Source: Antedon mediterranea
Taxonomy: Eukaryota; Animalia; Echinodermata
DNA: 64,000 nt
Assembly: GCF_964355755.1 (NCBI RefSeq)
Contig: NC_092676.1
Coordinates: 5,743,888-5,807,887 of the forward strand
Reading direction: 5' to 3'
The notes beneath the pieces were generated by a model. It was not told the DNA's origin, did not search any database, and was given only the letters and a program-made list of their open reading frames with translations. This document shows, in pieces, positions 1 to 47,689 of the stretch (its first letter is position 1; each line of letters starts with the position of its first letter). A program made the translations under genes and the position numbers.

Positions 1-3000
1 AAAAATTATTGATAATCTTTAAAAAATGAATAATTTATTAATAATGGTTAAATAATGTTACTGCATAATATTCAGTATTATAAATTATTTTATTATTTAT
101 TTAAAAACAAATTAAACGAAGGAATTAATATGAGTCAAAATACTTACAGATGTGTCAGTGCTGTCAATCTATCAAATACATTGGCTGGCAATGTGCTTAT
201 TTGGTTACCGTACAAATACCTTCAAAGTAAACATATATACTTATACATTTTGAATTATTTTAATAGTCTTTCAGTCAATGATAGTGACATTATCTACATA
301 GTAAATGCTGATGAGTATTCTTTATTTAGGCAAAAAGTAACTGTTAAAATGATAATGTGTTATTCTCATTATCACAAATTCTATAGAAAATTCAAAATAT
401 TTATTATCATCTTAATGTATTGATCATTTTTATGTATTTAATTAAATCTCTTTAAATAATAATCAATGAACAATTATTGATAATCTTTAAAAAATGAATA
501 ATTTATTAATAAATACTGGTTAAATAATGTTACTGCATAATATTCAGTATTATAAATTATTTTATTATTTATTTAAAAACAAATTACACGAAGGAATTAA
601 TATGAGTCAAAATACTTACAGCTGTGTCAGTGCTGTCAATCTATCAAATACATTGGCTGGCAATGTGCTTATTTGGTTACTGTTCAACCTCCTTCAAAGT
701 AAAAACAATGTACAGTAACAATTACAATATTCAAGCTGTTTGATATGTCAACTTTTATTTTCGGTATACATTTTTTTTTAATTATTTGTATAGTCTTTCA
801 GTCAATGATAGGGACATTATCTACATAGTAAATGCTGATGAGTATTCTTTAATTAGGCAAAAATTAACTGTTAAAATAATAATGTGTTATTTATTATCAC
901 AAATTCTATAGTAAATTCTAAATATTTATTATCATCTTTATGTATTTATCATTTTTATGTATTTAATTAAATCTCTATAATGACCAATGAACAATTATCG
1001 ATAATCTTTTAAAAATGAAAAATGTATGAATAATGGCCTCTTCAAGTCAGCTGTATACTGCTCTAGTACTCTTATAGATACCATTGTAAAACAAATTTGA
1101 ATTAATAAATAAATTTATTTTTTATAGCAAATTCTAATTATTATTTGTTTTATTATTATCCTAATGTTTTATTATCATTTATCATTTATTATCTACATAA
1201 TAAATACTGATGGCCTGGGTATACTTTAATTAGGCTAAAATATATGTTTTATTTTGTTATTCTCATGAACATAATTTTTATAGGAAATCATACAAATTTG
1301 TTATCATCTTTATGTATTTAATAATATAATTATTTAATTTACCTAAATAATGACCAATAAACAATTATTAATATCTTTAAACAATGAATAATGTAATGAA
1401 AATTGTTAATACTGTATGTGATTTTTTTTTAAATACTGTGTTTGTTGATCAAATTATGAATGATAAACTGCATTATATTCATTGTTATGAATTATTTCAT
1501 TTGTTTTCTTTTTAAGTAAATTAAAACAAATAAATTAATTTTAGAAAAATACTTACAGTTTTGTCAGTGCTGTCAATCTATCAAATACATTGGCTGGCAA
1601 TGTACTTATTTGGTTACTGTTCAACCTCCTTCAAAGTAAAAACAATGTACAGTAACAATTACAATATTCAAGGTGTTTGAAATGTCAACTTTTATTTTCA
1701 ATATACATTTTTGAATTATTTCTATAGTCTTTCAGTCAATGATAGGGACATTATCTACATAGTAAATGCTGATGAGTATTCTTTAATTAGGCAAAAATTA
1801 ACTGTTAAAATGATAATGTGTTATTCTCATTATCACAAATTCTATAGAAAATTCTAAATATTTATTATCATCTTAATGTATTTATCATTTTTATGTATTT
1901 AATTAAATCTCTTTAAATAATGATCAATGAACAATTATTGATAATCTTTAAAAAATGAATAATTTATTAATACTGGTTAAATAATGTTACTGCATAATAT
2001 TTAGTATTATAAATTATTTTATTATTTATTTAAAAACAAATTAAACGAAGGAATTAATATGAGTCAAAATACTTACAGCTGTGTCAGTGCTGTCAATCTA
2101 TCAAATACATTGGCTGGCAATGTGCTTATTTGGTTACTGTTCAACCTCCTTCAAAGTAAAAACAATGTACAGTAACAATTACAATATTCAAGCTGTTTGA
2201 TATGTCAGCTTTTATTTTCGGTATACATTTTTTTAAAATTATTTTGTATAGTCTTTCAGTCAATGATAGGGACATTATCTACATAGTAAATGCTGATGAG
2301 TATTCTTTAATTAGGCAAAAATTAACTGTTAAAATAATAATGTGTTATTTATTATCACAAATTCTATAGTAAATTCTAAATATTTATTATCATCTTTATG
2401 TATTTATCATTTTTATGTATTTAATTAAATCTCTATAATGACCAATGAACAATTATCGATAATCTTTTAAAAATGAAAAATGTATGAATAATGGCCTCTT
2501 CAAGTCAGCTGTATACTGCTCTAGTACTCTTATAGATACCATTGTAAAACAAATTTGAATTAATAAATAAATTTATTTTTTATAGCAAATTCTAATTATT
2601 ATTTGTTTTATTATTATCCTAATGTTTTATTATCATTTATCATTTATTATCTACATAATAAATACTGATGGCCTGGGTATACTTTAATTAGGCTAAAATA
2701 TATGTTTTATTTTGTTATTCTCATGAACATAATTTTTATAGGAAATCATACAAATTTGTTATCATCTTTATGTATTTAATAATATAATTATTTAATTTAC
2801 CTAAATAATGACCAATAAACAATTATTAATATCTTTAAACAATGAATAATGTAATGAAAATTGTTAATACTGTATGTGATTTTTTTTTAAATACTGTGTT
2901 TGTTGATCAAATTATGAATGATAAACTGCATTATATTCATTGTTATGAATTATTTCATTTGTTTTCTTTTTAAGTAAATTAAAACAAATAAATTAATTTT

Positions 3001-6000
3001 AGAAAAATACTTACAGTTTTGTCAGTGCTGTCAATCTATCAAATACATTGACTGGCAATGTACTTATTTGGTTTCTGCCCAAATCCCTTCAAAGTAAAAA
3101 CAATGTACAGTAACAATTACAATATTCAAGTTGTTTGATATGTCAACTTTTATTTTCGGTATACATTTTTTTTTAATTATTTGTATAGTCTTTCAGTCAA
3201 TGATAGGGACATTATCTACATAGTAAATGCTGATGAGTATTCTTTAATTAGGCAAAAATTAACTGTTAAAATAATAATGTGTTATTTATTATCACAAATT
3301 CTATAGTAAATTCTAAATATTTATTATCATCTTTATGTATTTATCATTTTTATGTATTTAATTAAATCTCTATAATGACCAATGAACAATTATCGATAAT
3401 CTTTTAAAAATGAAAAATGTATGAATAATGGCCTCTTCAAGTCAGCTGTATACTGCTCTAGTACTCTTATAGATACCATTGTAAAACAAATTTGAATTAA
3501 TAAATAAATTTATTTTTTATAGCAAATTCTAATTATTATTTGTTTTATTATTATCCTAATGTTTTATTATCATTTATCATTTATTATCTACATAATAAAT
3601 ACTGATGGCCTGGGTATACTTTAATTAGGCTAAAATATATGTTTTATTTTGTTATTCTCATGAACATAATTTTTATAGGAAATCATACAAATTTGTTATC
3701 ATCTTTATGTATTTAATAATATAATTATTTAATTTACCTAAATAATGACCAATAAACAATTATTAATATCTTTAAACAATGAATAATGTAATGAAAATTG
3801 TTAATACTGTATGTGATTTTTTTTTAAATACTGTGTTTGTTGATCAAATTATGAATGATAAACTGCATTATATTCATTGTTATGAATTATTTCATTTGTT
3901 TTCTTTTTAAGTAAATTAAAACAAATAAATTAATTTTAGAAAAATACTTACAGTTTTGTCAGTGCTGTCAATCTATCAAATACATTGGCTGGCAATGTAC
4001 TTATTTGGTTACTGTGCAAATACCTTCAAAGTAAAAACAATGTACAGTAACAATTACAATATTCAAGGTGTTTGAAATGTCAACTTTTATTTTCAATATA
4101 CATTTTTGAATTATTTCTATAGTCTTTCAGTCAATGATAGGGACATTATCTACATAGTAAATGCTGATGAGTATTCTTTAATTAGGCAAAAATTAACTGT
4201 TAAAATGATAATGTGTTATTCTCATTATCACAAATTCTATAGAAAATTCTAAATATTTATTATCATCTTAATGTATTTATCATTTTTATGTATTTAATTA
4301 AATCTCTTTAAATAATGATCAATGAACAATTATTGATAATCTTTAAAAAATGAATAATTTATTAATACTGGTTAAATAATGTTACTGCATAATATTTAGT
4401 ATTATAAATTATTTTATTATTTATTTAAAAACAAATTAAACGAAGGAATTAATATGAGTCAAAATACTTACAGCTGTGTCAGTGCTGTCAATCTATCAAA
4501 TACATTGGCTGGCAATGTGCTTATTTGGTTATAGTCCAACCACCTTCAAAGTAAAAACAATGTACAGTAACAATTACAATATTCAAGTTGTTTGATATGT
4601 CAACTTTTATTTTTCTTATACATTTTGAATTATTTTTTATAGTCTTTCAGTCAATGATAGGGACATTATCTACATAGTAAATGCTGATGAGTATTCTTTA
4701 ATTAGGCAAAAATTAACTGTTAAAATAATAATGTGTTATTTATTATCACAAATTCTATAGTAAATTCTAAATATTTATTATCATCTTAATGTATTTATCA
4801 TTTTTATGTATTTAATTAAATCTCTATAATGACCAATGAACAATTATCGATAATCTTTTAAAACTGAAAAATGTATGAATAATGGCCTCTTCAAGTCAGC
4901 TGTATACTGCTCTAGTACTCTTATAGATACCATTGTAAAACAAATTTGAATTAATAAATAAATTTATTTTTTATAGAAAATTCTAATTATTATTTGTTTT
5001 ATTATTATCCTAATGTTTTATTATCATTTATCATTTATTATCTACATAATAAATACTGATGGCCTGGGTATACTTTATTTAGGCTAAAATATATGTTTAT
5101 ATTTTGTTATTCTCATGAACATAATTTTTATAGGAAATCATACAAATTTGTTATCATCTTTATGTATTTAATAATATAATTATTTAATTTACCTAAATAA
5201 TGACCAATAAACAATTATTAATATCTTTAAACAATTAATAATGTAATGAAAATTGTTAATACTGTATGTGATTTTTTTTTAAATACTGTGTTTGTTGATC
5301 AAATTATGAATGATAAACTGCATAATATTCATTATTATGAATTATTTCATTTGTTTTCTTTTTAAGTAAATTAAAACAAATAAATTAATTTTAGAAAAAT
5401 ACTTACAGTGTTGTCAGTGCTGTCAATCTATCAAATACATTGGCTGGCAATGTACGTATTTTGTTAATGTACAAATACCTTCAAAGTAAAAGAAAGATAC
5501 AGTAACAATTACAATATTCAAGCTGTTTGAAATGTCAACTTTTATTTTCAATATACATTTTTGAATTATTTGTATAGTCTTTCAGTCAATGGTAGGGACA
5601 TTATCTACATAGTAAATGCTGATGAGTATTCTTTAATTAGGCAAAAATTAACTGTTAAAATAATAATGTGTTATTCTCATTATCACAAATTCTATAGCAA
5701 ATTCTATTTATTATCATCTTTATGTATTAATCATTTTTATGTATTTAATTAAATCTCTATAATGACCAATGAACAATTATCGATAATCTTTTAAAAATGA
5801 AAAATGTATGAATAATGGCCTCTTCAAGTCAGCTGTATACTGCTCTAGTACTCTTATTGATACCCTTGTAAAACAAATTTGAATTAATAAATAAATTTAT
5901 TTTTTATAGCAAATTCTAATTATTATTTGTTTTATTATTATCCTAATGTTTTATTATCATTTATCATTTATTATCTACATAATAAATACTGATGGCCTGG

Positions 6001-6830
6001 GTATACTTTAATTAGGCTAAAATATATGTTTTATTTTGTTATTCTCATGAACATAATTTTTATAGGAAATCATACAAATTTGTTATCATCTTTATGTATT
6101 TAATAATATAATTATTTAATTTACCTAAATAATGACCAATAAACAATTATTAATATCTTTAAACAATGAATAATGTAATGAAAATTGTTAATACTGTATG
6201 TGATTTTTTTTTAAATACTGTGTTTGTTGATCAAATTATAAATGATAAACTGCATTATATTCATTGTTATGAATTATTTCATTTGTTTTCTTTTTAAGTA
6301 AATTAAAACAAATAAATTAATTTTAGAAAAATACTTACAGGCGTGTCAATGCTGTCAATTTATTAAATACATTGGCTGGCAATGTACTTATTTGGTTCCC
6401 GCTCAAACTCCTTCAAAGTAAAAACAATGTACAGTAACAATTACAATATTCAAGTTGTTTGATATGTCAACTTTTATTTTCGGTATACATTTTTTTTGAA
6501 TTATTTCTATAGTCTTTCAGTCAATGATAGGGACATTATCTACATAGTAAATGCTGATGAGTATTCTTTAATTAGGCAAAAAGTAACTGTTAAAAAAGGA
6601 ATAATTTATTAATAATGGTTAAATAATGTTACTGCATAATATTCAGTATTATAAATTATTTTCTTATTTATTTAAAAACAAATTAAACGAAGGAATTAAT
6701 ATGAGTCAAAATACTTACAGTACTGTCAGTGCTGTCAATCTATCAAATACATTGGCTGGCAATGTACGTATTTGGTTCCAGCCCAAATCCCTTCAATGTA
6801 AAAGAAAGGTACATTAACAATTACAATATT
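1..6830 (-). repeat. Tandem intron+LRR-exon array of paralog A (units ~520 and ~937 bp)
   Basis: Near-identical units, each containing plus-strand atacttac-ag...gtcagtgctgtcaatctatcaaatacattggctggcaatgt...-cttcaaagt (donor, exon, acceptor on the minus strand). Variable motifs in transcript order: DLGW, SLSG, YLYI, WLDY, YLHS, DLGR, RLNS, RLNS, RLNS, YLYG. Confidence 0.93.
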
Positions 6831-7881
6831 TGATATTCTATTCATACAGGTATAGGCCTACAGTGATTGTGCTTGGGGTATATAAAGTGACCCCACAAAA
6901 TGAAATTATTTCTGATAACTCTAAGTACTAAATTTCAAATTGTCATTAGGTCATTATTACATATTTTAAAATATATATTATATATATTTTTAAATTCCAC
7001 GTTTTATAATAAACTTACAATGAAATGTTTGCACTGACTGACTTACAATTCTGTTACTGGAATATGATCATTATACTCGTTGATGGTTGCGATGTTATTA
7101 ATACTCCATGGAGGACGACATTCCACTCTGTGACCGTAAGTAGACCTCTTAGGCGCACCACATTCACAGTCGGCTGGACATTCTGCATTTGTTAAAAACA
7201 AGACAACTCGGAGATACGTCAAGAAAGGAAAAGTGAAAACTATCTTTTTCAATATATATGTAATGTTACAAATGCAATCAAATCAAATAAAATGTCTAGC
7301 TGTGACCGCTCAATTAAATATAATTCGAATCAGATAAAAAAATTAATTCATAATCATGTAAAAATAAATACTGTATAGTACAGTATATAAACAAAAGTTG
7401 AACATTAACATTTAAATCAGATTGTCTTCGAAGTTTAATAACAGTACTGTTGTTATAAACCAACAAAACAGTATAGTTTGTATGAGGCATACTGTTCAAA
7501 GACAGGGCTACATCTATTATTAAATACAGTATCAAATACCAAACAGCTAATTAATTATTATATTAAACAATTAATAAATTAAAAAAATGAAGCAATCATA
7601 CCGGGAAGGGTATTAGGATTCCAGGCGATAGTAGTAGGATCATAGTCAAAGTTGATGACGTGATTGGTAACGTTAACGTAAGTGGAGCTTCCCCTGTCAC
7701 TGTCAACACCACTGGAAAGGGTGCCACTGCCACTGCTACCACCACTGCCACTGTCACTGCCACTACCACTACCACTATCACTTTCACTGCCACCATCGCT
7801 GTCACTAAAACAGCGATAACAAGGTAATACAACCAATACAACAATACAATACAGTAGTATGTTTCCTTTTAAGATAAACAT
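148..7881 (-). CDS. LRR-GPCR paralog A, 5' part (signal peptide, LRRNT, >=10 VLR-like LRR exons); 3' end lies left of the window
   Basis: Exons, all GT-AG: 7602-7881, 7047-7182, then 72-nt exons 6719-6790, 6339-6410, 5407-5478, 4472-4543, 3952-4023, 3015-3086, 2077-2148, 1557-1628, 620-691, 148-219. Phases 1, 2, 2... join into one open frame. Same layout as complete paralog C. Confidence 0.88.
7047..7182 (-). CDS. Paralog A exon 2: cysteine-rich LRR N-terminal cap (LRRNT)
   Basis: Acceptor TGCAG|, ECPADCECGAPKRSTYGHRVEC...IPVTEL, donor TT|GTAAGT. 136 nt, phase 1->2. CPxxCxC...VxC is the LRRNT pattern. Confidence 0.88.
7602..7881 (-). CDS. Paralog A exon 1: signal peptide plus Ser/Gly/Asp-rich linker
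   Basis: MFILKGNILLYCIVVLVVLPCYRC-FSDSDGGSESDSGSGSGSDSGSGGSSGSG...AWNPNTLP. Donor G|GTATGA at 7601, phase 1. Homologous to 47488-47689 and 28168-28382. Confidence 0.85.
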
Positions 7882-10573: not shown

Positions 10574-10711
10574 CACATTCACACTAATGTTTTATTTTAC
10601 GGAAGGGAAGACGACGTAGTTATTTTTTACCAAAACGGTATCGTCTTCCGTTCCGTGAAGTGGAATTTTAAATTTTGAATGGGAGTATTAAATGTAAGCA
10701 GTATCCAGATA

Positions 10712-12434: not shown

Positions 12435-13449
12435 TCACAATGTATTAAGTGGAATCTGTACAACTGCCGGTTGACGCACTTTGCACTTAAACATATATAC
12501 AATTGTGTAAAGATAAGGATTCACTGAGGAGTTGATGGGGATGATGAATGTCGCCGCCCAAACATATATGTCATCAGGAATCGTCATCCAACTCATCTCA
12601 GAACCAATTGCCATTACTATAATCGGACCCCAGCAACAGAAATCTGTGAAAACTATTAAGCCCAGTTTTCTCGCCATTTTCAACTGTTCTTTCCTCATCT
12701 GTCGTCTATTGACAGTGGCCCCCGATCTCTTAACCGATAAGAAGATCACGAGGTAGCTCACTGTTATTACAATGAACCCGATTCCGTTAAATACAACAAA
12801 CATGGCGACTGCATACTCCCAGCCTTGCCAATGACTTTTTGTCAGAGGTAGTGCGAGGCACACACTCTCTTTGCCATAGTAATTATCTCCAAAATATGAA
12901 ATATCTGTTATTGGAAGAAAACTCAGCACAATCCAAAATAGCCATGCCAAGCCGATAATGCTTCTACATTTTGTACGATTGAGGCGTTTTGTACTAAATG
13001 GATTAACAATGTTAATAGCTCGATCCACACTCAGCAGCATCAGTGTAAACACTGAGCATTGCCCAGAGATTGTAGAAATTGCCCCGGCAAAGCTGCAAAG
13101 AAAACTGCTCTTCCAATCCCTTGCAGCTTTAGCATACCGTCCACGATAGTGTATGTCCGCACTCGCAATGATGATCAAGTAGACTGCCATTAGCAAGTCG
13201 GACACGGCAAGATTAGTAATGAGTGTGGTCTGGACCTTATTTACATTGTTACCTAAATCATTATCCTTTTTGAACTTTCGTGATATGATGACAATCAAAT
13301 TGCCAATGACTGATGACACCCCAATGATCATCATCAATACACGGAGAACATCGCTTTTTAGCAAGTCTTCACAAGAAGCAAATGCATCAACGGGTTCGCA
13401 GACATCAATGTCACCAACAAGGCAACACAGACGAGAGAAATCGGAGTAC
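12435..13449 (-). CDS. Paralog B terminal exon: LGR type-C hinge plus rhodopsin-class 7TM domain
   Basis: Acceptor CTTAG| at 13450. YSDFSRLCC...CEPVDAFASCEDLL hinge, NLAVSDLLM (TM2), SVDRA (DRY-like), CLALP (ECL2), FTDFCCWGPI (TM6), PINSSVNPYLY (NPxxY). Intact to TGA. Confidence 0.93.
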
Positions 13450-14031: not shown

Positions 14032-14103
14032 AATTCTTTTAAATTGTTCAGTTCTTCAAAAGTTCTATCTCTGTAATTCTGTAAGTTGTTCTTTTGTAAC
14101 CAT
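14032..14103 (-). CDS. Paralog B last (divergent, non-array) LRR exon
   Basis: 72 nt, AG|...|GTAAG, WLQKNNLQNYRDRTFEELNNLKEL. Nearly identical to 36357-36428 in C. Confidence 0.85.
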
Positions 14104-15544
14104 CTATAGGATAACATATTAGAAATAAATTAAGAATAGGCTAATACATTTTGAAAAAAGTAAAGTTTTCAAACTATGGTTTATGTATGCTTTTCTTGAA
14201 GAAAATACATGAACTATGTATATTTTAACTGTTATGAATCCTCTTTATCTTTATCTTTGAATTTGGTCTGTATATTTTTGTATTGTTTTTAAGAGGGCCT
14301 CTTCAAGTCAGCTGTACTGCTGTAGTACTGTTAGAGCTACCCTTGTAAAACAAATTTGAATGAATAAATAAATATATTCATATTTTATTTATCTGTACAT
14401 AACACTATTCTAAATTCAAGACCCCTGGTGAAAACCAAATACACTTTATTTGTTTACTTGTTTGGAAGTTTTCCATTCAAATTCAGTGGTTGAATACATC
14501 CTTTGTGTTCGAAGTTCTTATTATTATTGTATGTTTATATAAATAAATTAAATTATTTTATTATTTATTTAAAAACAAATTCAACGAAAGAATCAATATG
14601 AGTCAAAATACTTACAGGTGTGTCAGTGCTGTCAATCTATCAAATACATTGACTGGCAATGTACTTATTTGGTTGCTGTTTAAACTCCTTCAAAATAAAA
14701 GAAAGGTACAGTAACAACTACAATATTCAAGTTGTTTGAAATGTCAACTTTTATTTTCAAAATACATTTTGAATGATTGTAATAGTCTTTCAGTCAATGA
14801 TAGGGACATAATCTACATAGTAAGTGCTGATAAGTATTCTCTAATTAGGCAAAAATTAACTGTTAAAATAATAATGTGTTATTCTCATTATCACGAATTC
14901 TATAGAAAATTCTAAATATTTATCATCTTAATGTATTTATCATTTTTATGTATTTAATTAAATCTCTTTAAATAATGATCAATGAACAATTATTGATAAT
15001 CTTTAAAAAATGAATAGTTTATTAATAATGGTTAAATAATGTTACTGCATAATATTCAGTATTATAAATTATTTTATTATTTATTTAACAATAAATTAAA
15101 CGAAGGAATTTATAAGAGTAAAATACTTACAGTAATGTCAGTGCTGTCAATCTATCAAATACATTGACTGGCAATGTACTTATTTGGTTACTGCCCAAAA
15201 ACCTTCAAAATAAAAGAAAGGTACAGTAACAATTACAATATTTAAGCTGTTTGAAATGTCAACTTTTATTTTCGATATACATTTTTTAATTATTTCTATA
15301 GTCTTTTAGTCAATGAGGGTCATTATCTACATAGTAAATGCTGATGAGTATTCTTTAATTAGGCAAAAATTAACTGTTAAAATAATAATGTGTTATTCTC
15401 ATTATCACAAATTCTATAGAAAATTCTTAATATTAATTATCATCTTAATGTATTTATCATTTTTATGTATTTAATTAAATCTATTTAAATAATGATCAAT
15501 GAAGAATTATTGATAATCTTTAAAAAATTAATAATTTATTAACA

Positions 15545-17272: not shown

Positions 17273-17382
17273 AGGCCAACAGCCATAAGTTGCGTAATAA
17301 AATGCATAGTGATACCGGACCGACAGACCGACAGACCGACCGACCGACATAGGGAACTATAGAGTCGCGTCCACGCGACTAA
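17272..17382 (+). mobile_element. Short Helitron/HINE-like element with (GACC/GACA)n core and terminal hairpin
   Basis: aaggccaacagcc...gaccgacagaccgacagaccgaccgaccgac...tagagtcgcgtccacgcgactaa (stem agtcgcgt/acgcgact). Confidence 0.55.
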
Positions 17383-23082: not shown

Positions 23083-23146
23083 GACGACGACGACGACAAC
23101 AATAATAATGATGATGATGATGATGATGATGATGACGATGACGATG
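23083..23146. repeat. Compound trinucleotide microsatellite (GAC/AAT/GAT)
   Basis: gacgacgacgacgacaacaataataatgatgatgat... Confidence 0.9.
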
Positions 23147-26135: not shown

Positions 26136-26167
26136 GGTACGCGAGCGAAGCGAGCGTACCATCTAGT
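26136..26167 (+). mobile_element. Helitron-like 3' terminus
   Basis: GC-rich hairpin ggtacgc-gagcgaagcga-gcgtacc followed by CTAG|T. 5' end not located. Confidence 0.45.
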
Positions 26168-26302
26168 AAATTAAATTAACAATCACAGTAGAGTTAACAT
26201 AAAAATAAATACTGTATAGTACAGAATAAAAGCAAAAGTTAAAAATTAAAATTATGAATTTAATCAGATTGCCTTCGAAGTTTAATAATAGTGTAGTCCT
26301 AC

Positions 26303-27972: not shown

Positions 27973-28674
27973 TACTGTTTTTTTAAAAACTAACAAAACA
28001 TTTTGTATAATATAGAGCCTATTTTCAAAGAAAGGGCTAAATATATTATTAGACACAGTATCAAATACCAAACAGCTAATTATGAAAATAACACACTTTC
28101 TGATACTGATAGCATAATTATTATACCTATCAACATAACGTAAATTTAAAGAATGAAGCAATCATACCGGGAAGGGTATCACTATTCCATGCGATAGTAA
28201 TATTATCATAGTCAGACTCGATGACTTGATAAATTGTAAAGTTAACATCAGTTGAGTTGATAAATTCAATACTACTATAATCACTTTCACTGCCACCATC
28301 GCTGCCACTGTCACAGCGATAACAAGGTAATACAACCAATATAACAATACAATAGTAATATGATTCCTTTTAAGATGAACATCTTCTTAACTCAATTCAC
28401 TCGTAATCAATTTAATAAACTTTACTTCTGCGAGTCCACTCAGCATATGAACAATATACTTTGTTTCATATCTTCATTTACCTGTATTTATTAAACTTTT
28501 TTAAATATTAAACATTTAGATACAGTCACCGGATGCATTAATAAAATTCTGAGTTGTTAATATTTTATAATATTTTATCCATATTATATGAGCACAAGAT
28601 TTTTAAAACACATGGACCCGTGTTACTCATAATTGTTGAAAAGTGCTAAGTTTAAAAATAGAGATAAGTATAAG

Positions 28675-34906: not shown

Positions 34907-35921
34907 TTACAATGTATTAAGTGGAATCTGTACAACTGCCGGTTGACGCACTTTGCACTTAAACATATATACAATTGTGTAAAGATAAGGATTGACTGAG
35001 GAGTTGATGGGGATGATGAATGTCGCCGCCCAAACATATATGTCATCAGGAATTGTCATCCAACCCATCTCAGAACCAATTGCCATTACTATAATCGGAC
35101 CCCAGCAACAGAAATCTGTGAAAACTATTAAGCCTAGTTTCCTCGCCATTTTCAACTGTTCTTTCCTCATCTGTCGTCTATTGACAGTGGCCCCCGATCT
35201 CTTAACCGATAAGAAGATTACGAGGTAGCTCACTGTTATTACAATGAACCCGATTCCGTTAAATACAACAAACATGGCGACTGCATACTCCCAGCCTTGC
35301 CAATGACTTTTTGTCAGAGGTAGTGCGAGGCACACACTCTCTTTGCCATAGTAATTATCCCCAAAATATGAAATATCTGTTATTGGAAGAAAACTCAGCA
35401 CAATCCAGAAAAGCCATGCGAAGCCGATAATGATTCGACATTTTGTACGATTGAGGCGTTTCGTACTAAATGGATTAACAATGTTAATAGCTCGATCCAC
35501 ACTCAGCAGCATCAGTGTAAACACTGAGCATTGCCCAGAGAGTGTAGAAATTGCCCCGGCAAAGCTGCAAAGGAAACTGCTCTTCCAATCCCTTGCAACT
35601 TTGGCATACCGTCCACGATAGTGTACATCCACACTCGCAATGATGATTAAGTAGACAGCCATTAGCAAGTCAGACACGGCAAGATTAGTAATGAGTGTGG
35701 TTTGAACCTTATTTACATTGTTACCTGAATCATTATCCTTTTTAAACTTTCGTGATATGATGACAATCAAATTTCCAATGACTGATGACACCCCAATGAT
35801 CATCATCAATACACGGAGAACTTCGCTTTTTAGTAAGTCTTCACAAGAAGCAAATGCATCAACGGGTTCGCAGACATCAATGACACCAACAAGGCAACAG
35901 AGACGAGAAAAATCCGATTTC
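34907..35921 (-). CDS. Paralog C terminal exon: hinge plus 7TM
   Basis: Acceptor CATAG| at 35922. KSDFSRLCC...SCEDLL...NPYLY...NTL*. About 10 aa differences from the paralog B exon. Confidence 0.93.
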
Positions 35922-38900
35922 CTATGAGAGAGTAAAGTAAACTTGGCAAATGAATTTGAATAGTTATTTTTTTCGGAGGCCCAAATTGTTACTCTTCGAT
36001 CCCAAAAATAATGAGTAAAGGTTTAGAATAGTCGAAGATTAATTGTGAAAGTACATTTTTATGATACTTTCGGATAAATAAGAATAATAAAATACTATCT
36101 GTTTATAAGCATAATAACACATCGAATATCATGATTGTAACATAGCCGAATTAACTATTAATTTTAATATATCTATTTAAATTGAACATAATTAAAACAT
36201 TTACCACATTCAAATTATCAAATGTAACTTACTTAACTAAAACACCGACAAATTTAACATTCAATAAAATTATTTACTGTACATATAGCAAAGAGAATAA
36301 ATACTAATAGCTGCATAAGTTTGTATGAGCATCTCTCATACTTTTATCATACTTACAATTCTTTTAAATTGTTCAGTTCTTCAAAAGTTCTATCTCTGTA
36401 ATTCTGTAAGTTGTTCTTTTGTAACAATCTATAGGATAACATATTAGAAATAAATTAAGAATAGGCTAATACATTTTGAAAAAAGTAAAGTTTTCAAACT
36501 ATGGTTTATGTATGCTTTTCTTGAAGAAAATACATGAACTATGTATATTTTAACTGTTATGAATCCTCTTTATCTTTATCTTTGAATGTGGTCTGTATAT
36601 TTTTGTATTGTTTTTAAGATGGCCTCTTCAAGTCAGCTGTACTGCTGTAGTACTGTTAGAGCTACCCTTGTAAAACAAATTTGAATGAATAAATACATAT
36701 ATTAATAATTTATTTATCTGTACATAACACTATTCTAAATTCAAGACCCCTGATGAAAACAAAATACACTTTCTTTGTTTACTTGTTTGCGAAGTTTTCC
36801 ATTCAAATTCAGTGGTTGAATACATCCTTTGTGTTCGAAGTTCTGATTATTATTGTATGTTTTTTTAACGTTTTGTACTGTAATGCCTATAGCACTGATA
36901 CATATAACTATTCAAATACAAAGCTTCCTCACATTTTGACATTGAATCGTACAGCAAAAACTTTATTTTTTATTTGTTTACAGCAATAACTCCTTTACGG
37001 CTTCACAAGTGTGTTATAAAATCATGTTAACTTACAAACGTGAAAGTGATGAAGCAAAAGAAGAAAATGCACCTGGTTCTATGGTAGTTATAGCGTTTTC
37101 CTGTAAATACCTGTTAAGATAACCAATATGTATTATTATATATCTTGTTTTTCACATTACATTAAGTAAAGTACAGATACAAGTATTATTGTATTACACA
37201 TTGCATAATATTCAATACTCTCATATACATTAATTCCTTGTCTCTTCTGGGTATTTTTTTTTAATAAGGGGATAAAAAGTTCACTTTTTTATTGAATCTC
37301 ATCAAATAATTGTTTGTTAATTATTGTTTGTTAATCTTAATATTCTATTGATTTTTTACAACAATTGATAACACAGTGACTGGTTATAATACAACAAATG
37401 TAAATTAGACTGGATCATAATAATAGAAAGTAGTTCTGTTTCTGGGATATACGTCAGTAAATACTGATGGCCTGGGTATACTTTAATCAGGCTTAAATAT
37501 ATGTTTATTTTGTTATTTTTATAGGAAATCATAACAATTTGTTATCATCTTTATGTATTTAATAATATAATTATTTAATTTACCTAAATAATGACCAATA
37601 CACAATTATTAATATCTTTAAACAATGAATAATTTAATGAAAATTGTTAATACTGTATGTGATTTTTTTTTTAAATACTGTGTTTTTTGATCAAATTATG
37701 AATGATAAACTGCATAATATTCATTATTATGAATTATTTCATTTGTTTTCTTTTTAAATAAATTAAAACAAACAAATTAATTTTAGAAAAATACTTACAG
37801 TTCTGTCAGTGCTGCCAATCTATCAAATACATTGGCTGGCAATGTACGTATTTTGTTATTGTACAAATACCTTCAAAGTAAAAGAAAGATACAGTAACAA
37901 TTACAATATTCAAGCTGTTTGAAATGTCAACTTTTATTTTCAATATACATTTTTGAATTATTTGTATAGTCTTTCAGTCAATGGTAGGGACATTATCTAC
38001 ATAGTAAATGCTGATGAGTATTCTTTAATTAGGCAAAAATTAACTGTTAAAATAATAATGTGTTATTTATTATCACAAATTCTATAGTAAATTCTAAATA
38101 TTTATTATCATCTTTATGTATTTATCATTTTTATGTATTTAATTAAATCTCTATAATGACCAATGAACAATTATCGATAATCTTTTAAAAATGAAAAATG
38201 TATGAATAATGGCCTCTTCAAGTCAGCTGTATACTGCTCTAGTACTCTTATAGATACCCTTGTAAACAAATTTGAATTAATAAATAAATTTATTTTTTAT
38301 AGCAAATTCTAATTATTATTTGTTTTATTATTATCCTAATGTTTTATTATCATTTATCATTTATTATCTACATAATAAATACTGATGGCCTGGGTATACT
38401 TTAATTAGGCTAAAATATATGTTTTATTTTGTTATTCTCATGAACATAATTTTTATAGGAAATCATACAAATTTGTTATCATCTTTATGTATTTAATAAT
38501 ATAATTATTTAATTTACCTAAATAATGACCAATAAACAATTATTAATATCTTTAAACAATGAATAATGTAATGAAAATTGTTAATACTGTATGTGATTTT
38601 TTTTTAAATACTGTGTTTGTTGATCAAATTATGAATGATAAACTGCATTATATTCATTGTTATGAATTATTTCATTTGTTTTCTTTTTAAGTAAATTAAA
38701 ACAAATAAATTAATTTTAGAAAAATACTTACAGTTTTGTCAGTGCTGTCAATCTATCAAATACATTGGCTGGCAATGTACTTATTTGGTTTCTGTCCAAA
38801 TGCCTTCAAAGTAAAAACAATGTACAGTAACAATTACAATATTCAAGTTGTTTGATGTGTCAACTTTTATTTTCGGTATACATTTTTTTTTAATTATTTG

Positions 38901-41900
38901 TATAGTCTTTCAGTCAATGATAGGGACATTATCTACATAGTAAATGCTGATGAGTATTCTTTAATTAGGCAAAAATTAACTGTTAAAATGAGAATGTGTT
39001 ATTCTCATTATCACAAATTCTATAGAAGATTCTAAATATTTATTATCATCTTAATGTATTTATCATTTTTATGTATTTAATTAATTCTCTTTAAATAATT
39101 ATCAATGAACAATTATTGATAATCTTTAAAAAATGAATGATTTATTAATAATGGGTAAATAATGTTACTGCATAATATTCAGTATTATAAATTATTTTAT
39201 TATTTATTTAAAAACAAATTAGACGAAGGAATTAATATGAGTCAAAATACTTACAGCCATGTCAGTGCTGTCAATCTATCAAATACATTGGCTGGCAATG
39301 TGCTTATTTGGTTACCGCTCAAATCCCTTCAAAGTAAAAACAATGTACAGTAACAATTACAATATTCAAGCTGTTTGATATGTCAACTTTTATTTTCGGT
39401 ATACATTTTTTTTGAATTATTTCTATAGTCTTTCAGTCAATGATAGGGACATTATCTACATAGTAAATGCTGATGAGTATTCTTTAATTAGGCAAAAATT
39501 AACTGTTAAAATAATAATGTGTTATTTATTATCACAAATTCTATAGTAAATTCTAAATATTTATTATCATCTTTATGTATTTATCATTTTTATGTATTTA
39601 ATTAAATCTCTATAATGACCAATGAACAATTATCGATAATCTTTTAAAAATGAAAAATGTATGAATAATGGCCTCTTCAAGTCAGCTGTATACTGCTCTA
39701 GTACTCTTATAGATACCCTTGTAAAACAAATTTGAATTAATAAATAAATTTATTTTTTATAGCAAATTCTAATTATTATTTGTTTTATTATTATCCTAAT
39801 GTTTTATTATCATTTATCATTTATTATCTACATAATAAATACTGATGGCCTGGGTATACTTTAATTAGGCTAAAATATATGTTTTATTTTGTTATTCTCA
39901 TGAACATAATTTTTATAGGAAATCATACAAATTTGTTATCATCTTTATGTATTTAATAATATAATTATTTAATTTACCTAAATAATGACCAATAAACAAT
40001 TATTAATATCTTTAAACAATGAATAATGTAATGAAAATTGTTAATACTGTATGTGATTTTTTTTTAAATACTGTGTTTGTTGATCAAATTATGAATGATA
40101 AACTGCATTATATTCATTGTTATGAATTATTTCATTTGTTTTCTTTTCAAATAAATTAAAACAAATAAATTAATTTTAGAAAAATACTTACAGTTTTTTC
40201 AGTGCTGCCAATCTATCAAATACATTGGCTGGCAATGTACTTATTTGGTTATAGCTCAAATACCTTCAAAGTAAAAACAATGTACAGTAGCAATTACAAT
40301 ATTCAAGCTGTTTGAAATGTCAACTTTTATTTTCAATATACATTTTTGAATTATTTTAATAGTCTTTCAGTCAATGATAGGGACATTATCTACATAGTAA
40401 ATGCTGATGAGTATTCTTTAATTAGGCAAAAATTAACTGTTAAAATGATAATGTGTTATTCTCATTATCACAAATTCTATAGAAGATTCTAAATATTTAT
40501 TATCATCTTAATGTATTTCCCATTTTTATGTATTTAATTAAATCTCTTTAAAAAATGATCAATGAACAATTATTGATAATCTTTAAAAAATGAATAATTT
40601 ATTAATAATTGTTAAATAATGTTACTGCATAATATTTAGTATTATAAATTATTTTATTATTTATTTAAAAACAAATTACACGAAGGAATTAATATGAGTC
40701 AAAATACTTACAGTGTTGTCAGTGCTGTCAATCTATCAAATACATTGGCTGGCAATGTACTTATTTGGTTTCTGCTCAAACTCCTTCAAAGTAAAAACAA
40801 TGTACAGTAACAATTACAATATTCAAGGTGTTTGATATGTCAACTTTTATTTTCGGTATACATTTTTTTTGAATTATTTCTATAGTCTTTCAGTCAATGA
40901 TAAGGACATTATCTACATAGTAAATGCTGATGAGTATTCTTTAATTAGGCAAAAAGTAACTGTTAAAATAATAATGTGTTATTTATTATCACAAATTCTA
41001 TAGTAAATTCTAAATATTTATTATCATCTTTATGTATTTATCATTTTTATGTATTTAATTAAATCTCTTTAAATAATGACCAATGAACAATTATTGATAA
41101 TCTTTAAAAAATGAATGATTTATTAATAATGGGTAAATAATGTTACTGCATAATATTCAGTATTATAAATTATTTTATTATTTATTTAAAAACGAATTAC
41201 ACGAAGGAATTAATATGAGTCAAAATACTTACAGCCATGTCAGTGCTGTCAATCTATCAAATACATTGGCTGGCAATGTGCTTATTTGGTTACCGCTCAA
41301 ACCCCTTCAAAGTAAAAACAATGTACAGTAGCAATTACAATATTCAAGCTGTTTGAAATGTCAACTTTTATTTTCAATATACATTTTTGAATTATTTTAA
41401 TAGTCTTTCAGTCAATGATAGGGACATTATCTACATAGTAAATGCTGATGAGTATTCTTTAATTAGGCAAAAATTAACTGTTAAAATGATAATGTGTTAT
41501 TCTCATTATCACAAATTCTATAGAAGATTCTAAATATTTATTATCATCTTAATGTATTTATCATTTTTATGTATTTAATTAAATCTCTTTAAATAATGAC
41601 CAATGAACAATTATTGATAATCTTTAAAAAATGAATAATTTATTAATACTGGTTAAATAATGTTACTGCATAATATTTAGTATTATAAATTATTTTATTA
41701 TTTATTTAAAAACAAATTAAACGAAGGAATAATATGAGTCAAAATACTTACAGTTCTGTCAGTGCTGTCAATCTATCAAATACATTGGCTGGCAATGTGC
41801 TTATTTGGTTATACCACAAATTCCTTCAAAGTAAAAACAATGTACAGTAACAATTACAATATTCAAGCTGTTTAGAACCTCAACTTTTATTTTCGGTATA

Positions 41901-44900
41901 CATTTTTTTTGAATTATTTGTATAGTCTTTCAGTCAATGATAGGGACATTATCTACATAGTAAATGCTGATGAGTATTCTTTAATTAGGCAAAAAGTAAC
42001 TGTTAAAATAATAATGTGTTATTTATTATCACAAATTCTATAGTAAATTCTAAATATTTATTATCATCTTTATGTATTTATCATTTTTATGTATTTAATT
42101 AAATCTCTATAATGACCAATGAACAATTATCGATAATCTTTTAAAAATGAAAAATGTATGAATAATGGCCTCTTCAAGTCAGCTGTATACTGCTTTAGTA
42201 CTCTTATAGATACCATTGTAAAACAAATTTGAATTAATAAATAAATTTATTTTTTATAGCAAATTCTAATTATTATTTGTTTTATTATTATCCTAATGTT
42301 TTATTATCATTTATCATTTATTATCTACATAATAAATACTGATGGACTGGGTATACTTTAATTAGGCTAAAATATATGTTTTATTTTGTTATTCTCATGA
42401 ACATAATTTTTATAGGAAATCATACAAATTTGTTATCATCTTTATGTATTTAATAATATAATTATTTAATTTACCTAAATAATGACCAATAAACAATTAT
42501 TAATATCTTTAAACAATGAATAATGTAATGAAAATTGTTAATACTGTATGTGATTTTTTTTTAAATACTGTGTTTGTTGATCAAATTATGAATGATAAAC
42601 TGCATAATATTCATTATTATGAATTATTTCATTTGTTTTCTTTTTAAATAAATTAAAACAAACAAATTAATTTTAGAAAAATACTTACAGTTCTGTCAGT
42701 GCTGCCAATCTATCAAATACATTGGCTGGCAATGTACTTATTTGGTTATAGGTCAAATACCTTCAAAGTAAAAACAATGTACAGTAGCAATTACAATATT
42801 CAAGCTGTTTGAAATGTCAACTTTTATTTTCAATATACATTTTTGAATTATTTTAATAGTCTTTCAGTCAATGATAGGGACATTATCTACATAGTAAATG
42901 CTGATGAGTATTCATTAATTAGGCAAAAATTAACTGTTAAAATGATAATGTGTTATTCTTATTATCACAAATTCTATAGAAGATTCTAAATATTTATTAT
43001 CATCTTAATGTATTTCCCATTTTTATGTATTTAATTAAATCTCTTTAAAAAATGATCAATGAACAATTATTGATAATCTTTAAAAAATGAATAATTTATT
43101 AATAATGGTTAAATAATGTTACTGCATAATATTCAGTATTATAAATTATTTTATTATTTATTTAAAAACAAATTACACGAAGGAATTAATATGAGTCAAA
43201 ATACTTACAGCCATGTCAGTGCTGTCAATCTATCAAATACATTGGCTGGCAATGTACTTATTTGGTTACTGTGCAAATACCTTCAAAGTAAAAACAATGT
43301 ACAGTAACAATTACAATATTCAAGGTGTTTGAAATGTCAACTTTTATTTTCAATATACATTTTTGAATTATTTCTATAGTCTTTCAGTCAATGATAGGGA
43401 CATTATCTACATAGTAAATGCTGATGAGTATTCTTTAATTAGGCAAAAATTAACTGTTAAAATGATAATGTGTTATTTATTATCACAAATTCTATAGTAA
43501 ATTCTAAATATTTATTATCATCTTAATGTATTTATCATTTTTATGTATTTAATTAAATCTCTTTAAATAATGATCAATGAACAATTATTGATAATCTTTA
43601 AAAAATGAATAATTTATTAATACTGGTTAAATAATGTTACTGCATAATATTTAGTATTATAAATTATTTTATTATTTATTTAAAAACAAATTAAACGAAG
43701 GAATTAATATGAGTCAAAATACTTACAGTTCTGTCAGTGCTGTCAATCCATCAAATACATTGGCTGGCAATGTACTTATTTGGTTATCGTGCAAATCCCT
43801 TCAAAGTAAAAACAATGTACAGTAACAATTACAATATTCAAGTTGTTTGATATGTCAACTTTTATTTTCGGTATACATTTTTTTTGAATTATTTCTATAG
43901 TCTTTCAGTCAATGATAGGGACATTATCTACATAGTAAATGCTGATGAGTATTCTTTAATTAGGCAAAAATTAACTGTTAAAATGATAATGTGTTATTCT
44001 CATTATCACAAATTCTATAGAAGATTCTAAATATTTATTATCATCTTAATGTATTTCCCATTTTTATGTATTTAATTAAATCTCTTTAAAAAATGATCAA
44101 TGAACAATTATTGATAATCTTTAAAAAATGAATAATTTATTAATAATGGTTAAATAATGTTACTGCATAATATTTAGTATTATAAATTATTTTATTATTT
44201 ATTTAAAAACAAATTAAACGGAGGAATTAATATGAGTCAAAATACTTACAGCTGTGTCAGTGCTGTCAATCTATCAAATACATTGGCTGGCAATGTGCTT
44301 ATTTGGTTACTGTTCAACCTCCTTCAAAGTAAAAACAATGTACAGTAACAATTACAATATTCAAGCTGTTTGATATGTCAGCTTTTATTTTCAGTATACA
44401 TTTTTTTTGAATTATTTGTATAGTCTTTCAATCAATGATAAGGAAATTATCTACATAGTAAATGCTGATGAGTATACTTTAATTAGGCAAAAATTAACTG
44501 TTAAAATAATAATGTGTTATTTATTATCACAAATTTTATAGTAAATTCTAAATATTTATTATCATCTTAATGTATTTATCATTTTTATGTATTTAATTAA
44601 TTCTCTTTAAATAATTATCAATGAACAATTATTGATAATCTTTAAAAAATGAATGATTTATTAATAATGGGTAAATAATGTTACTGCATAATATTCAGTA
44701 TTATAAATTATTTTATTATTTATTTAAAAACAAATTACACGAAGGAATTAATATGAGTCAAAATACTTACAGCCATGTCAGTGCTGTCAATCTATCAAAT
44801 ACATTGGCTGGCAATGTGCTTATTTGGTTACCGCTCAAACCCCTTCAAAGTAAAAACAATGTACAGTAGCAATTACAATATTCAAGCTGTTTCAAATGTC

Positions 44901-47689
44901 AACTTTTATTTTCAATATACATTTTTGAATTATTTTAATAGTCTTTCAGTCAATGATAGGGACATTATCTACATAGTAAATGCTGATGAGTATTCTTTAA
45001 TTAGGCAAAAATTAACTGTTAAAATGATAATGTGTTATTCTCATTATCACAAATTCTATAGAAGATTCTAAATATTTATTATCATCTTAATGTATTTCCC
45101 ATTTTTATGTATTTAATTAAATCTCTTTAAAAAATGATCAATGAACAATTATTGATAATCTTTAAAAAATGAATAATTTATTAATAATTGTTAAATAATG
45201 TTACTGCATAATATTTAGTATTATAAATTATTTTATTATTTATTTAAAAACAAATTAAACGAAGGAATTAATATGAGTCAAAATACTTACAGGTGTGTCA
45301 ATGCTGTCAATCTATCAAATACATTGGCTGGCAATGTGCTTATTTGGTTACCGTTCAAATCCCTTCAAAGTAAAAACAATGTACAGTAACAATTACAATA
45401 TTCAAGCTGTTTGATATGTCAGCTTTTATTTTCGGTATACATTTTTTTTGAATTATTTGTATAGTCTTTCAGTCAATGATAGGACATTATCTACATAGTA
45501 AATGCTGATGAGTATTCTTTAATTAGGCAAAAAGTAACTGTTAAAATAATAATGTGTTATTTATTATCACAAATTCTATAGTAAATTCTAAATATTTATT
45601 ATCATCTTAATGTATTTATCATTTTTATGTATTTAATTAAATCTCTATAATGACCAATGAACAATTATCGATAATCTTTTAAAAATGAAAAATGTATGAA
45701 TAATGGCCTCTTCAAGTCAGCTGTATACTGCTCTAGTACTCTTATAGATACCCTTGTAAAACAAATTTGAATTAATAAATAAATTTATTTTTTATAGCAA
45801 ATTCTAATTATTATTTGTTTTATTATTATCCTAATGTTTTATTATCATTTATCATTTATTATCTACATAATAAATACTGATGGACTGGGTATACTTTAAT
45901 TAGGCTAAAATATATGTTTTATTTTGTTATTCTCATGAACATAATTTTTATAGGAAATCATACAAATTTGTTATCATCTTTATGTATTTAATAATATAAT
46001 TATTTAATTTACCTAAATAATGACCAATAAACAATTATTAATATCTTTAAACAATGAATAATGTAATGAAAATTGTTAATACTGTATGTGATTTTTTTTT
46101 AAATACTGTGTTTGTTGATCAAATTATGAATGATAAACTGCATTATATTCATTGTTATGAATTATTTCATTTGTTTTCTTTTTAAGTAAATTAAAACAAA
46201 TAAATTAATTTTAGAAAAATACTTACAGTTTTGTCAGTGCTGTCAATCTATCAAATACATTGGCTGGCCATGTACTTATTTGGTTACCGTACAACAACCT
46301 TCAAAGTAAAAACAATGTACAGTAACAATTACAATATTCAAGCTGTTTGAAATGTCAACTTTTATTTTCGGTATACATTTTTTTTGAATTATTTCTATAG
46401 TCTTTCAGTCAATGATAGGACATTATCTACATAGTAAATGCTGATGAGTATTCTTTAATTAGGCAAAAAGTAACTGTTAAAAAAGGAATAATTTATTAAT
46501 AATGGTTAAATAATGTTACTGCATAATATTCAGTATTATAAATTATTTTCTTATTTATTTAAAAACAAATTAAACGAAGGAATTAATATGAGTCGAAATA
46601 CTTACAGGTGTGTCAATGCTGTCAATCTATCAAATACATTGGCTGGCAATGTACTTATCCGGTTATAACTCAAATCCCTTCAATGTAAAAAAAAGTTCAT
46701 TAACAATTACAATATTTGATATTCCATTCATACAGGTATAGGCCTACAGTGATTGTGCTTGGGGTATATAAAGTGACCCCACAAAATGAAATTATTTCTG
46801 ATAACTCTAAGTACTAAATTTCAAATTGTCATTAGGTCATTATTACATATTTTAAAATATATATTATATATATTTTTAAATTCCACGTTTTATAATAAAC
46901 TTACAATGAAATGTTTGCACTGACTGACTTACAATTCTGTTACTGGAATATGATCATTATACTCGTTGATGGTTGCGATGTTATTAATACTCCATGGAGG
47001 ACGACATTCCACTCTGTGACCGTAAGTAGACCTCTTAGGCGCACCACATTCACAGTCGGCTGGACATTCTGCATTTGTTAAAAACAAGACAACTCGGAGA
47101 TACGTCAAGAAAGGAAAAGTGGAAACTATCTTTTTCAATATATATGTAATGTTACAAATGCAATCAAATCAAATAAAATGTCTAGCTGTGACCGCTCAAT
47201 TAAATATAATTCGAATCAGATAAAAAAATTAATTCATAATCATGTAAAAATAAATACTGTATAGTACAGTATATAAACAAAAGTTGAACATTAACATTTA
47301 AATCAGATTGTCTTCGAAGTTTAATAACAGTACTGTTGTTATAAACCAACAAAACAGTATAGTTTGTATGAGGCATACTGTTCAAAGACAGGGCTACATC
47401 TATTATTAAATACAGTATCAAATACCAAACAGCTAATTAATTATTATATTAAACAATTAATAAATTAAAAAAATGAAGCAATCATACCGGGAAGGGTATT
47501 AGGATTCCAGGCGATAGTAGTAGGATCATAGTCAGAGTTGATGACGTGATTGGTAACGTTAACGTAAGTAGAGCTGCCACTGTCACTGTCACCACCACTG
47601 GGAAGGGTGTCACTAAAACAACGAGAACAAGGTAATACAACCAATATAACAATACAATACAGTAGTATGATTCCTTTTAAGATGAACAT
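34907..47689 (-). CDS. LRR-GPCR paralog C, complete (20 coding exons, ~859 aa; LGR type-C/GRL101-like 7TM with 15 VLR-like variable LRRs plus 2 capping LRRs)
   Basis: Exons: 47488-47689, 46933-47068, 72-nt exons starting 46606, 46227, 45291, 44771, 44250, 43727, 43209, 42689, 41752, 41233, 40712, 40192, 39255, 38732, 37799, then 37036-37110 (75 nt, YLQENAITTIEPGAFSSFASSLSR), 36357-36428, 34907-35921. Total 2580 nt, all GT-AG, no internal stop. Confidence 0.9.
37450..46720 (-). repeat. Tandem intron+LRR-exon array of paralog C
   Basis: 15 units. Motifs in transcript order: DLSY, LLYG, DLNG, GLSG, RLNS, DLHD, YLHS, YLTY, NLWY, GLSG, SLSR, YLSY, DLSG, HLDR, YLYN. Confidence 0.93.
46933..47068 (-). 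CDS. Paralog C exon 2 (LRRNT)
   Basis: Same translation as A exon 2, canonical splice sites. Confidence 0.88.
47488..47689 (-). CDS. Paralog C exon 1 (signal peptide plus short Ser/Gly linker)
   Basis: MFILKGIILLYCIVILVVLPCSRCFSDTLPSGGDSDSGSSTYVNVT...NTLP. 202 nt, phase 1. Confidence 0.85.

Follow-up and report, generated by a model that had tools for sequence, protein, structure and literature searches.

What does a receptor gain from an extracellular domain built out of a long series of nearly identical exons? This question is raised by a 64,000-nt stretch of the genome of the crinoid Antedon mediterranea (NCBI RefSeq assembly GCF_964355755.1, contig NC_092676.1, positions 5,743,888 to 5,807,887 of the forward strand), which was analysed as a whole and is called the window below. 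The window (28% GC, zero N) holds three paralogous genes, A, B and C, with arrays of 72-nt exons that each encode one leucine-rich repeat (LRR) in the ectodomain of a rhodopsin-family G-protein-coupled receptor (GPCR). That we are dealing with a known kind of receptor and a known mode of diversification, brought together in a new setting, is well supported by sequence comparison. As to the function, we consider it somewhat probable that the genes encode germline-encoded, fast-evolving sensors of non-self, i.e., of foreign proteins or glycans, which would signal through G proteins.

A fuzzy search with the repeat core found 35 minus-strand exons, all exactly 72 nt long, preceded by AG and followed by GT in 35/35 cases, which is far beyond chance. 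Gene C carries 15 of them and genes B and A 10 each; 31/35 have distinct sequences, all are in phase 2-2, and each is part of a duplicated intron+exon unit, the introns mostly being about 450 or about 865 nt long. A preliminary description of the stretch between the end of the last gene A exon (148) and the ATG of gene C (47689) had announced such exons, in duplicated units and on the same strand of three paralogs, and all of them were found. An artefact of assembly was considered and rejected, because 31/35 exons differ and short-read contigs from one sequencing run (X1) match parts of gene C at 0-4 differences.

Splicing the exons of gene C gives an open frame of 859 aa with zero internal stops, as had been anticipated. 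It comprises a signal peptide (identified by eye), a Cys-rich N-terminal cap (N-cap; its LRRNT-like identity comes from the cysteine pattern), 15 repeats, two capping LRR exons, and a last exon with the hinge and a seven-transmembrane domain (7TM) that matches Pfam 7tm_1 (E 3e-33). The same layout had been claimed for all three paralogs. Only gene C displays it in full within the window, since gene A, after signal peptide, N-cap and 10 repeats, runs off the window edge, with its 7TM beyond, and gene B is broken. The parts of gene C are the following:

47488..47689, minus strand: exon 1 with ATG, signal peptide and Ser/Thr/Asp-rich linker (202 nt, ends in phase 1)
46933..47068, minus strand: exon 2, Cys-rich N-terminal cap, LRRNT-like by its cysteine pattern (136 nt, phase 1 to 2)
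37799..46677, minus strand: array of 15 exons of 72 nt, from fuzzy search and splice sites
Starts of the repeat exons, minus strand: 46677, 46298, 45362, 44842, 44321, 43798, 43280, 42760, 41823, 41304, 40783, 40263, 39326, 38803, 37870
37036..37110, minus strand: first capping LRR exon, 75 nt, matching a 25-aa repeat of Antedon homologues
36357..36428, minus strand: second capping LRR exon, 72 nt
34907..35921, minus strand: last exon with short Cys hinge, CEDL motif, 7TM, short C-tail and stop

Several lines of evidence place these genes among the LGRs. The gene C model unites a rhodopsin-family 7TM with a signal peptide, an LRR ectodomain and a hinge in one frame, and all 10 PDB matches at E 1e-15 or better are to RXFP1, FSHR, LHCGR, TSHR or a nematode LGR, the best solved structure being RXFP1 (E 4.5e-46). 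The hinge of about 30 residues is short, which is a feature of type C, and its end can be aligned to FNPCEDIM in FSHR, LHCGR and TSHR, the stretch that serves as tethered agonist in glycoprotein-hormone receptors. The 7TM has retained the activation motifs DRA, FTDFCCWGP and NPYLY intact. For the ectodomain, the AlphaFold model of an Antedon relative, P0066 (predicted local distance difference test score 78.8), was used as a stand-in; it matches TSHR, LGR4 and FSHR.

The best 7TM matches are crinoid proteins that carry the NCBI name GRL101-like, and the nearest three, from Antedon mediterranea itself, are 86-87% identical. A 7TM phylogeny, which had been proposed as a check, was made as a quick tree of 58 rows (two window 7TMs and 56/181 proteins, mainly those with a named source), with support from the Shimodaira-Hasegawa-like approximate likelihood ratio test (SH-aLRT) only. 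In this tree, the window genes group with the type C rows, apart from the type A and B rows (100), and fall into an 18-row clade made up of crinoids only (99), while canonical GRL101 from arthropods, molluscs and sea urchin forms a separate 10-row clade (96). LDLa modules, of which C1 receptors by definition have one and C2 receptors several at the N-terminus, are absent from the spliced models of genes C and A. Three basal crinoid rows of the 18-row clade have LDLa and no row of the 15-row subclade that contains the window genes (99) does, which suggests that the module was lost. No PF00057 was found in the 13 nearest crinoid proteins either, but several of these appear truncated at the N-terminus, and only in C, A, P0066 and P0004 can the module be regarded as truly missing. 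By these comparisons, the genes are an LDLa-less branch of the GRL101-like (type C) LGRs and not the canonical GRL101 orthologue.

For crinoids, the accessible text of PMC8286064 (the papers cited here were available in part) gives one gene each for the receptors of the GRL101, dilp7 and gonadulin types and no further LGRs, and the window family thus comes in addition to the hormone receptors. The same source states that LGR genes usually carry their LRRs as single exons, so that one repeat per exon is ordinary here. What is rare among relatives is the likeness of the repeats to each other, since any LRR pair with at least 70% identity occurs in only 5/63 proteins. Number alone is less telling: sponge and ctenophore LGRs have 7 to 26 LRRs according to the part of PMC4079206 that was available. 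Similar LRR runs were seen in the Capsaspora receptor kinases P0098 and P0132, and a brittle star protein, P0036, which is an LDLa-less GRL101-like receptor with 20 LRRs, has 8/190 pairs at or above 70% identity and possibly represents an independent array.

Within this uniform scaffold, four codons per repeat are hypervariable. They correspond to x3, x5, x7 and x8 of the LRR (LxxLxLxxN numbering) and lie at exon nucleotides 2-4, 8-10, 11-13 and 68-70, with x3 ending one exon and x5, x7 and x8 opening the next. From their place in the LRR motif, they are predicted to lie on the concave face. The number of distinct residues is 9 at x3, 11 at x5, 10 at x7 and 8 at x8, as compared to 1 to 4 at each of the other 19 codons. 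Non-synonymous diversity (pN) is 0.59 at the four codons versus 0.026 in the other 19, where synonymous diversity (pS) is 0.057; the diversity of the flanking introns is 0.124 (259 columns). The hypervariable positions are rich in Y, S, G, D, H, R, N and W, with Y, W, H and F making up 45/140 residues and P, C, M and A none. Such an aromatic-rich composition resembles the contact surfaces of antibodies and of the variable lymphocyte receptors (VLRs). Of the 32 strands that could be reconstructed, 29 are distinct. The earlier proposal of a rapidly diversifying LRR ectodomain of variable length (15 repeats in C, 10 in B) on a rhodopsin 7TM has held up. Among the annotated A. mediterranea proteins, x3, x7 and x8 again vary most in 13 distinct repeats, followed by x12 and x5.

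The variation is largely confined to these codons. Between nearest-neighbour units (24 pairs), 284/8197 sites in flanks and scaffold differ (3.5%) versus 133/288 hypervariable sites (46%), and between genes A and C, 16 of the 48 mismatches in 2111 aligned columns fall in 24 hypervariable bases. On a shared tree of 32 units (C01, A01 and B01 were excluded, their upstream introns being non-homologous), introns evolve at a relative rate of 0.79, scaffold positions at 0.31 and 0.19, and the hypervariable codons at 13.7 (positions 1-2) and 4.7 (position 3). Codon site models for 32/35 units, run with a custom implementation, prefer M2a over M1a by 2dlnL (twice the log-likelihood difference) of 214 and 200 under two choices of codon frequencies, and the selected class contains only x3, x5, x7 and x8. 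Because recombination inflates codon site tests, we put more weight on allele counts. Within the six x codons of the concave face, all four bases occur at 7/12 first and second positions versus 6/259 intron columns (P 2.6e-9, independent of any tree), and at least three bases occur at 0/34 of the first and second positions outside these six codons. The synonymous sites beside the variable codons are fixed in 35/35 units (N9, x2) or 34/35 (L6), and the common third base is kept in 22/27 distinct x5, x7 and x8 codons that are able to keep it, which favours selection on residues. The 7TM, by comparison, is under purifying selection, as the exons of genes B and C differ by 24 synonymous and at most 12 non-synonymous changes (pN 0.016 vs pS 0.10).

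How does the scaffold remain uniform while the units are rearranged? Genes A and C are near-identical, yet their unit order differs. All four combinations of two 5′ haplotypes with two downstream intron classes occur, the incompatibility of adjacent sites is 0.095 versus 0.248 when shuffled (P 0.004), and that of informative sites is 0.33 across the exon core versus 0.17 within one side (43 sites). The units thus recombine across the conserved exon core, and we infer that unequal crossing-over and gene conversion are the cause and keep the scaffold uniform. Since all repeat exons share the length of 72 nt and phase 2-2, the reading frame survives the gain, loss or exchange of units.

A further question is whether the small exons are used in transcripts. 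Ten sequencing runs contain the stretch, none of them on record as RNA, and the assembled contigs of four (X1, X5, X6 and X8) were compared. Run X5, from a second sample of organism A, is RNA by a tool's guess. For a 156-base stretch around one exon (window 41195-41350), contigs of X5 run back into the start of the exon after 8 and 17 intervening letters, giving a head-to-tail period of exactly 72 and the in-frame readings K-L and T-L-D-L-S. Loose ends, read by eye, run on into the capping exon or arrive from the N-cap exon. No exon-exon joint is among those listed for X1, X6 and X8. The X5 junctions might still stem from a copy of the gene without introns in the genome, although none was found in the window and no such joint is among those listed for these three runs. 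The junctions come from paralogous alleles and therefore speak for splicing in the family, not of gene C itself; when contigs were compared with the whole of gene C (14 kb), the best 15 of 65 entries included no joint whose ends were of the splice type. Splicing of the 72-nt exons within the gene family, as expected beforehand, is supported by this single run of guessed RNA status.

The same comparison showed that 23/33 of the listed variants from organism A and organism B sit in the 12 hypervariable bases of the 156, and the same codons thus vary in a second species (organism B). Summed contig depth on the repeat exon and the 7TM exceeded that on a unique flank by far; it provides no measure of copy number and was left unused. 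The loose ends of X5, X6 and X8 in this stretch also revealed a second type of repeat-exon scaffold, ending in SDLTAL as in the Antedon protein P0005, which is joined to the next repeat exon in X5 and to intron in X6 and X8.

Under our preferred reading, in-frame 72-nt units would be gained, lost or swapped, changing the length and order of the arrays; the scaffold would be homogenised by unequal crossing-over and gene conversion, and diversifying selection would maintain the variety of residues at x3, x5, x7 and x8. As judged from LRR and LGR structures, the four residues of each repeat would together form a concave beta-sheet that contacts the ligand. Binding might then move the ectodomain, engage the conserved hinge segment aligned with FNPCEDIM and thereby switch on the conserved 7TM. 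The predicted ligands would be products of microbes, parasites or symbionts.

Not everything fits this reading equally well. The junctions stem from paralogous alleles in one run whose RNA status is a guess, and X5 also contains unspliced contigs that span intron-exon borders. The read data pool paralogues, such that the variants do not equal variation between individuals at one locus, and the lower depth at variable sites makes the 2% listing threshold easier to reach. The 7TM tree is a quick version with SH-aLRT support only, and the omega values of 47-62 are inflated by recombination. Avoidance of stop codons is not significant (0 among 45 distinct hypervariable codons, 1.8 expected, P 0.15). 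The third positions of the hypervariable codons outpace introns on the tree (4.7 vs 0.79), and there are six synonymous allele pairs among these codons; both observations imply that the alleles are older than the homogenised scaffold or that local mutation is somewhat raised. The annotated A. mediterranea relatives have shorter and less uniform arrays, which are either real or annotation gaps, and one of the three genes (B) is broken. The enrichment of a starfish GRL101-like gene in sensory tentacles (PMC6267866, in the part available) would fit a chemosensory role equally.

This last point leads to a possible though rather unlikely alternative, namely that the same genes, diversified in the germline, recognize ligands from other feather stars or from the habitat, such as gamete proteins, allorecognition factors, pheromone peptides or settlement cues. 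Proteins for reproduction and self-recognition are also under diversifying selection, and the results on selection and recombination agree equally well with such ligands. The overexpression of the GRL101-like gene in starfish sensory tentacles (PMC6267866, same part) points the same way. Yet the many distinct strands within one molecule (29 of 32), the several paralogues per genome and the loss of a gene would suggest a birth-and-death receptor family rather than a one-to-one gamete pair. That the receptors are instead ordinary ones for an endogenous peptide, with a satellite-like expansion of LRR exons and variable codons owed to drift or local mutation, is very improbable. Their relatives are relaxin and glycoprotein-hormone receptors, one gene is broken, and the third positions of the variable codons are somewhat raised, all of which would suit such an origin. 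However, the change stops at codon borders with the adjacent synonymous sites fixed, the variation is limited to concave-face positions and is seen again in a second species, the LGRs for crinoid hormones are reported as single-copy in the accessible text of PMC8286064, and canonical GRL101 is a separate clade. The results on selection and allele counts largely refute a neutral origin.

We also regard it as improbable that the genes diversify within the individual in addition, through the skipping of exons or through somatic recombination between units for which broken paralogues such as B would be donors, in the manner of Dscam or VLRs. The shared phase and length would keep any subset of the 35 exons in frame, gene B has 10 open exons with intact splice sites despite three lesions elsewhere, and the LRR exons of brown-algal ROCO genes are alternatively spliced (PMC11378527, in the part available). 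Against this, gene C is complete as assembled and requires no rearrangement, the window contains no inverted or orphan exon copies, and the retention of the third base in the variable codons is unlike a deaminase-type patch. Gene B may simply have died recently, given the purifying selection on its 7TM, and the X5 junctions fit skipping and ordinary splicing alike. Slightly more doubtful still is an anticipatory repertoire on a GPCR, in which each cell would pick or rearrange 72-nt LRR units, resulting in VLR-like surfaces wired to G proteins in a deuterostome without a backbone.

The proposed sensors of non-self with germline diversification can be compared to several known systems. With the type C LGRs (RXFP1/2 as C1, GRL101 as C2), the window genes share the LRR ectodomain, the short Cys hinge, the rhodopsin 7TM and one repeat per exon. 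They differ by the lack of LDLa, by 15 near-identical repeats where most relatives have few and divergent ones, and by the four hypervariable codons. A tandem arrangement is also found in the GRL101-like cluster SudRes2 of Biomphalaria sudanica; as far as the accessible text of PMC11398393 goes, this snail region, linked to schistosome resistance, has 12 GRL101-like genes, and the validated variant lies in a neighbouring gene.

The closest working analogue, by analogy of organization, is the exon shuffling of brown-algal ROCO genes, a parallel drawn in the preliminary description that has become closer. From the available text of PMC3341825 and PMC11378527, these genes also have 72-nt phase-2 exons with one LRR each, copy numbers that differ between recent duplicates, and recombination inside the LRR domain, and on their concave face four sites are under selection, spaced as in the window genes (14, 16, 18 and 19 vs x3, x5, x7 and x8; PMC11378527, which also describes alternative splicing of the LRR exons). 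ROCO proteins, however, are stramenopile proteins with a ROC-COR GTPase domain, whereas the window genes have an extracellular array on an animal GPCR with a C-terminal 7TM and no ROC-COR. Unlike in ROCO genes, the exon border runs through the variable strand, such that x3 belongs to one exon and x5, x7 and x8 to the following one, and inverted intronic exon copies were not found in the window.

The VLRs of lampreys and hagfish (VLRA/B/C) likewise consist of 24-residue typical-class LRRs with a near-constant scaffold and concave-face variation. The window repeats are a 24-aa LRRV-like module with a variable concave face, as assigned from LRR motif position, and in the PDB one exon peptide matches VLRs, repebodies and designed proteins with a consensus LRR. 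In the germline, a VLR gene is incomplete, and cytidine deaminases take part in its somatic assembly from cassettes (PMC13428168, in the part available). By contrast, gene C is complete in frame, all 35 repeats have splice sites, and no additional copies lie in the window. The claim of VLR-like cassettes can be kept for the likeness of the peptides, but this reflects a typical-class LRR consensus that is shared with designed proteins, LRRC15, Slit and LGR4, and the complete gene bears no sign of somatic assembly. The likeness to VLRs is best read as convergence on the LRR consensus, judging from the sequences. In fungal NLRs of the HET-E type and in the zinc-finger arrays of PRDM9, recombination also keeps tandem units uniform while a few contact residues diversify, although there a single exon contains all repeats, and these unrelated proteins act inside the cell.

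A lineage-specific expansion of LRR-GPCRs is known from octopus, where group 3 of the adhesion GPCRs has LRR domains and positive selection at the branch level, with no selected sites in the site test; these are adhesion-class receptors with a GPCR proteolysis site (GPS) motif and not rhodopsin-type LGRs, and the available text of PMC6408891 describes no hypervariable exon arrays. A term search found nothing on LRR exon arrays in the available text of a preprint on tandem duplication in corals (10.1101/2022.05.17.492263) and a paper on holothurian GPCRs (PMC7042368). More generally, the literature, mainly open full texts without supplements, contained no description, for LGRs or for crinoids, of LRR exons in hypervariable arrays, though some of the crinoid genes may already appear in the supplements of PMC8286064 and PMC4079206. 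Of the new recognition system that had been postulated, the receptor family is a known one (GRL101-like type C LGR), and the novelty lies in its mode of diversification.

Modular in-frame exons, a uniform scaffold, four diversifying residues per repeat and a conserved G-protein output give this LGR branch the signature of an arms race. LGRs are known as hormone receptors with fixed ligands. If the ligands are foreign, the genes would constitute a class of variable pattern-recognition receptors outside those of a 2026 review of immune diversification (PMC13428168, which in its accessible part has no GPCR and no crinoid), and would have arrived independently at the solution of VLRs and brown-algal ROCO genes. 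The reading is directly testable, because the output of a GPCR is easy to assay and the specificity code would consist of four residues per repeat. As arrays of this kind are probably collapsed in short-read annotation, similar genes may be missed in other invertebrates.

Gene A, which is cut by the window edge, comprises the following parts:

7602..7881, minus strand: exon 1, signal peptide and linker with Ser/Gly hexamer repeat
7047..7182, minus strand: N-cap exon, protein identical to gene C, 99.6% over 551 nt with flanks
148..6790, minus strand: array of 10 exons of 72 nt, after which the gene leaves the window
Starts of the repeat exons, minus strand: 6790, 6410, 5478, 4543, 4023, 3086, 2148, 1628, 691, 219

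The hexamer repeat (7722-7806) makes the Ser/Gly linker in exon 1 of gene A 26 residues longer than that of gene C and is a second, simpler source of length variation in the ectodomain.

Gene B has a frameshift in exon 1 and lacks both the N-cap exon and the first capping exon, neither of which was found by tblastn and blastn; no alternative N-cap exon was found either. Its 10 repeats, second capping exon and 7TM exon are still open:

28168..28382, minus strand: exon 1, frameshifted, stop at codon 24
24054..26200, no strand: unrelated DNA (about 2.1 kb, including a tandem duplication of 820 nt) at the N-cap place of genes A and C, the exon being absent
14616..23751, minus strand: array of 10 exons of 72 nt, all open, splice sites intact
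Starts of the repeat exons, minus strand: 23751, 20616, 20117, 19604, 19094, 18590, 18076, 17560, 15202, 14687
15524..16993, plus strand: reverse transcriptase open reading frame (ORF) of the long interspersed nuclear element (LINE) type in an LRR intron, opposite to the gene (489 aa stop to stop, RVT_1 E 2.6e-17)
14032..14103, minus strand: second capping LRR exon
12435..13449, minus strand: hinge plus 7TM exon, open, 96% identical to gene C

The tandem duplication in the foreign DNA (24061-25722, 97.8%) is probably a mobile element, and the LINE insert spans about 15545-17380 in total. The 3-kb first array intron of gene B contains an AT-rich minisatellite (21720-22132; periods 18, 55, 73 and 105), which also matches itself in inverted orientation.

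No Rfam match was obtained. Outside the genes, between 47700 and 64000, where several tandem repeats with periods of 119, 143 and 187 lie, no convincing coding frame was recognized by eye among 19 ORFs of at least 70 aa. Intergenic DNA is duplicated as well (9072-10449 / 32044-33423 and 11043-13521 / 33528-35999, 93-95%), which indicates that the cluster grew by tandem duplication of whole genes. An 85-nt element (36619-36703, 14296-14378 and in long array introns) is common to the long type of array introns and the intron between the capping exons, and its very high contig depth suggests that it is a dispersed repeat.

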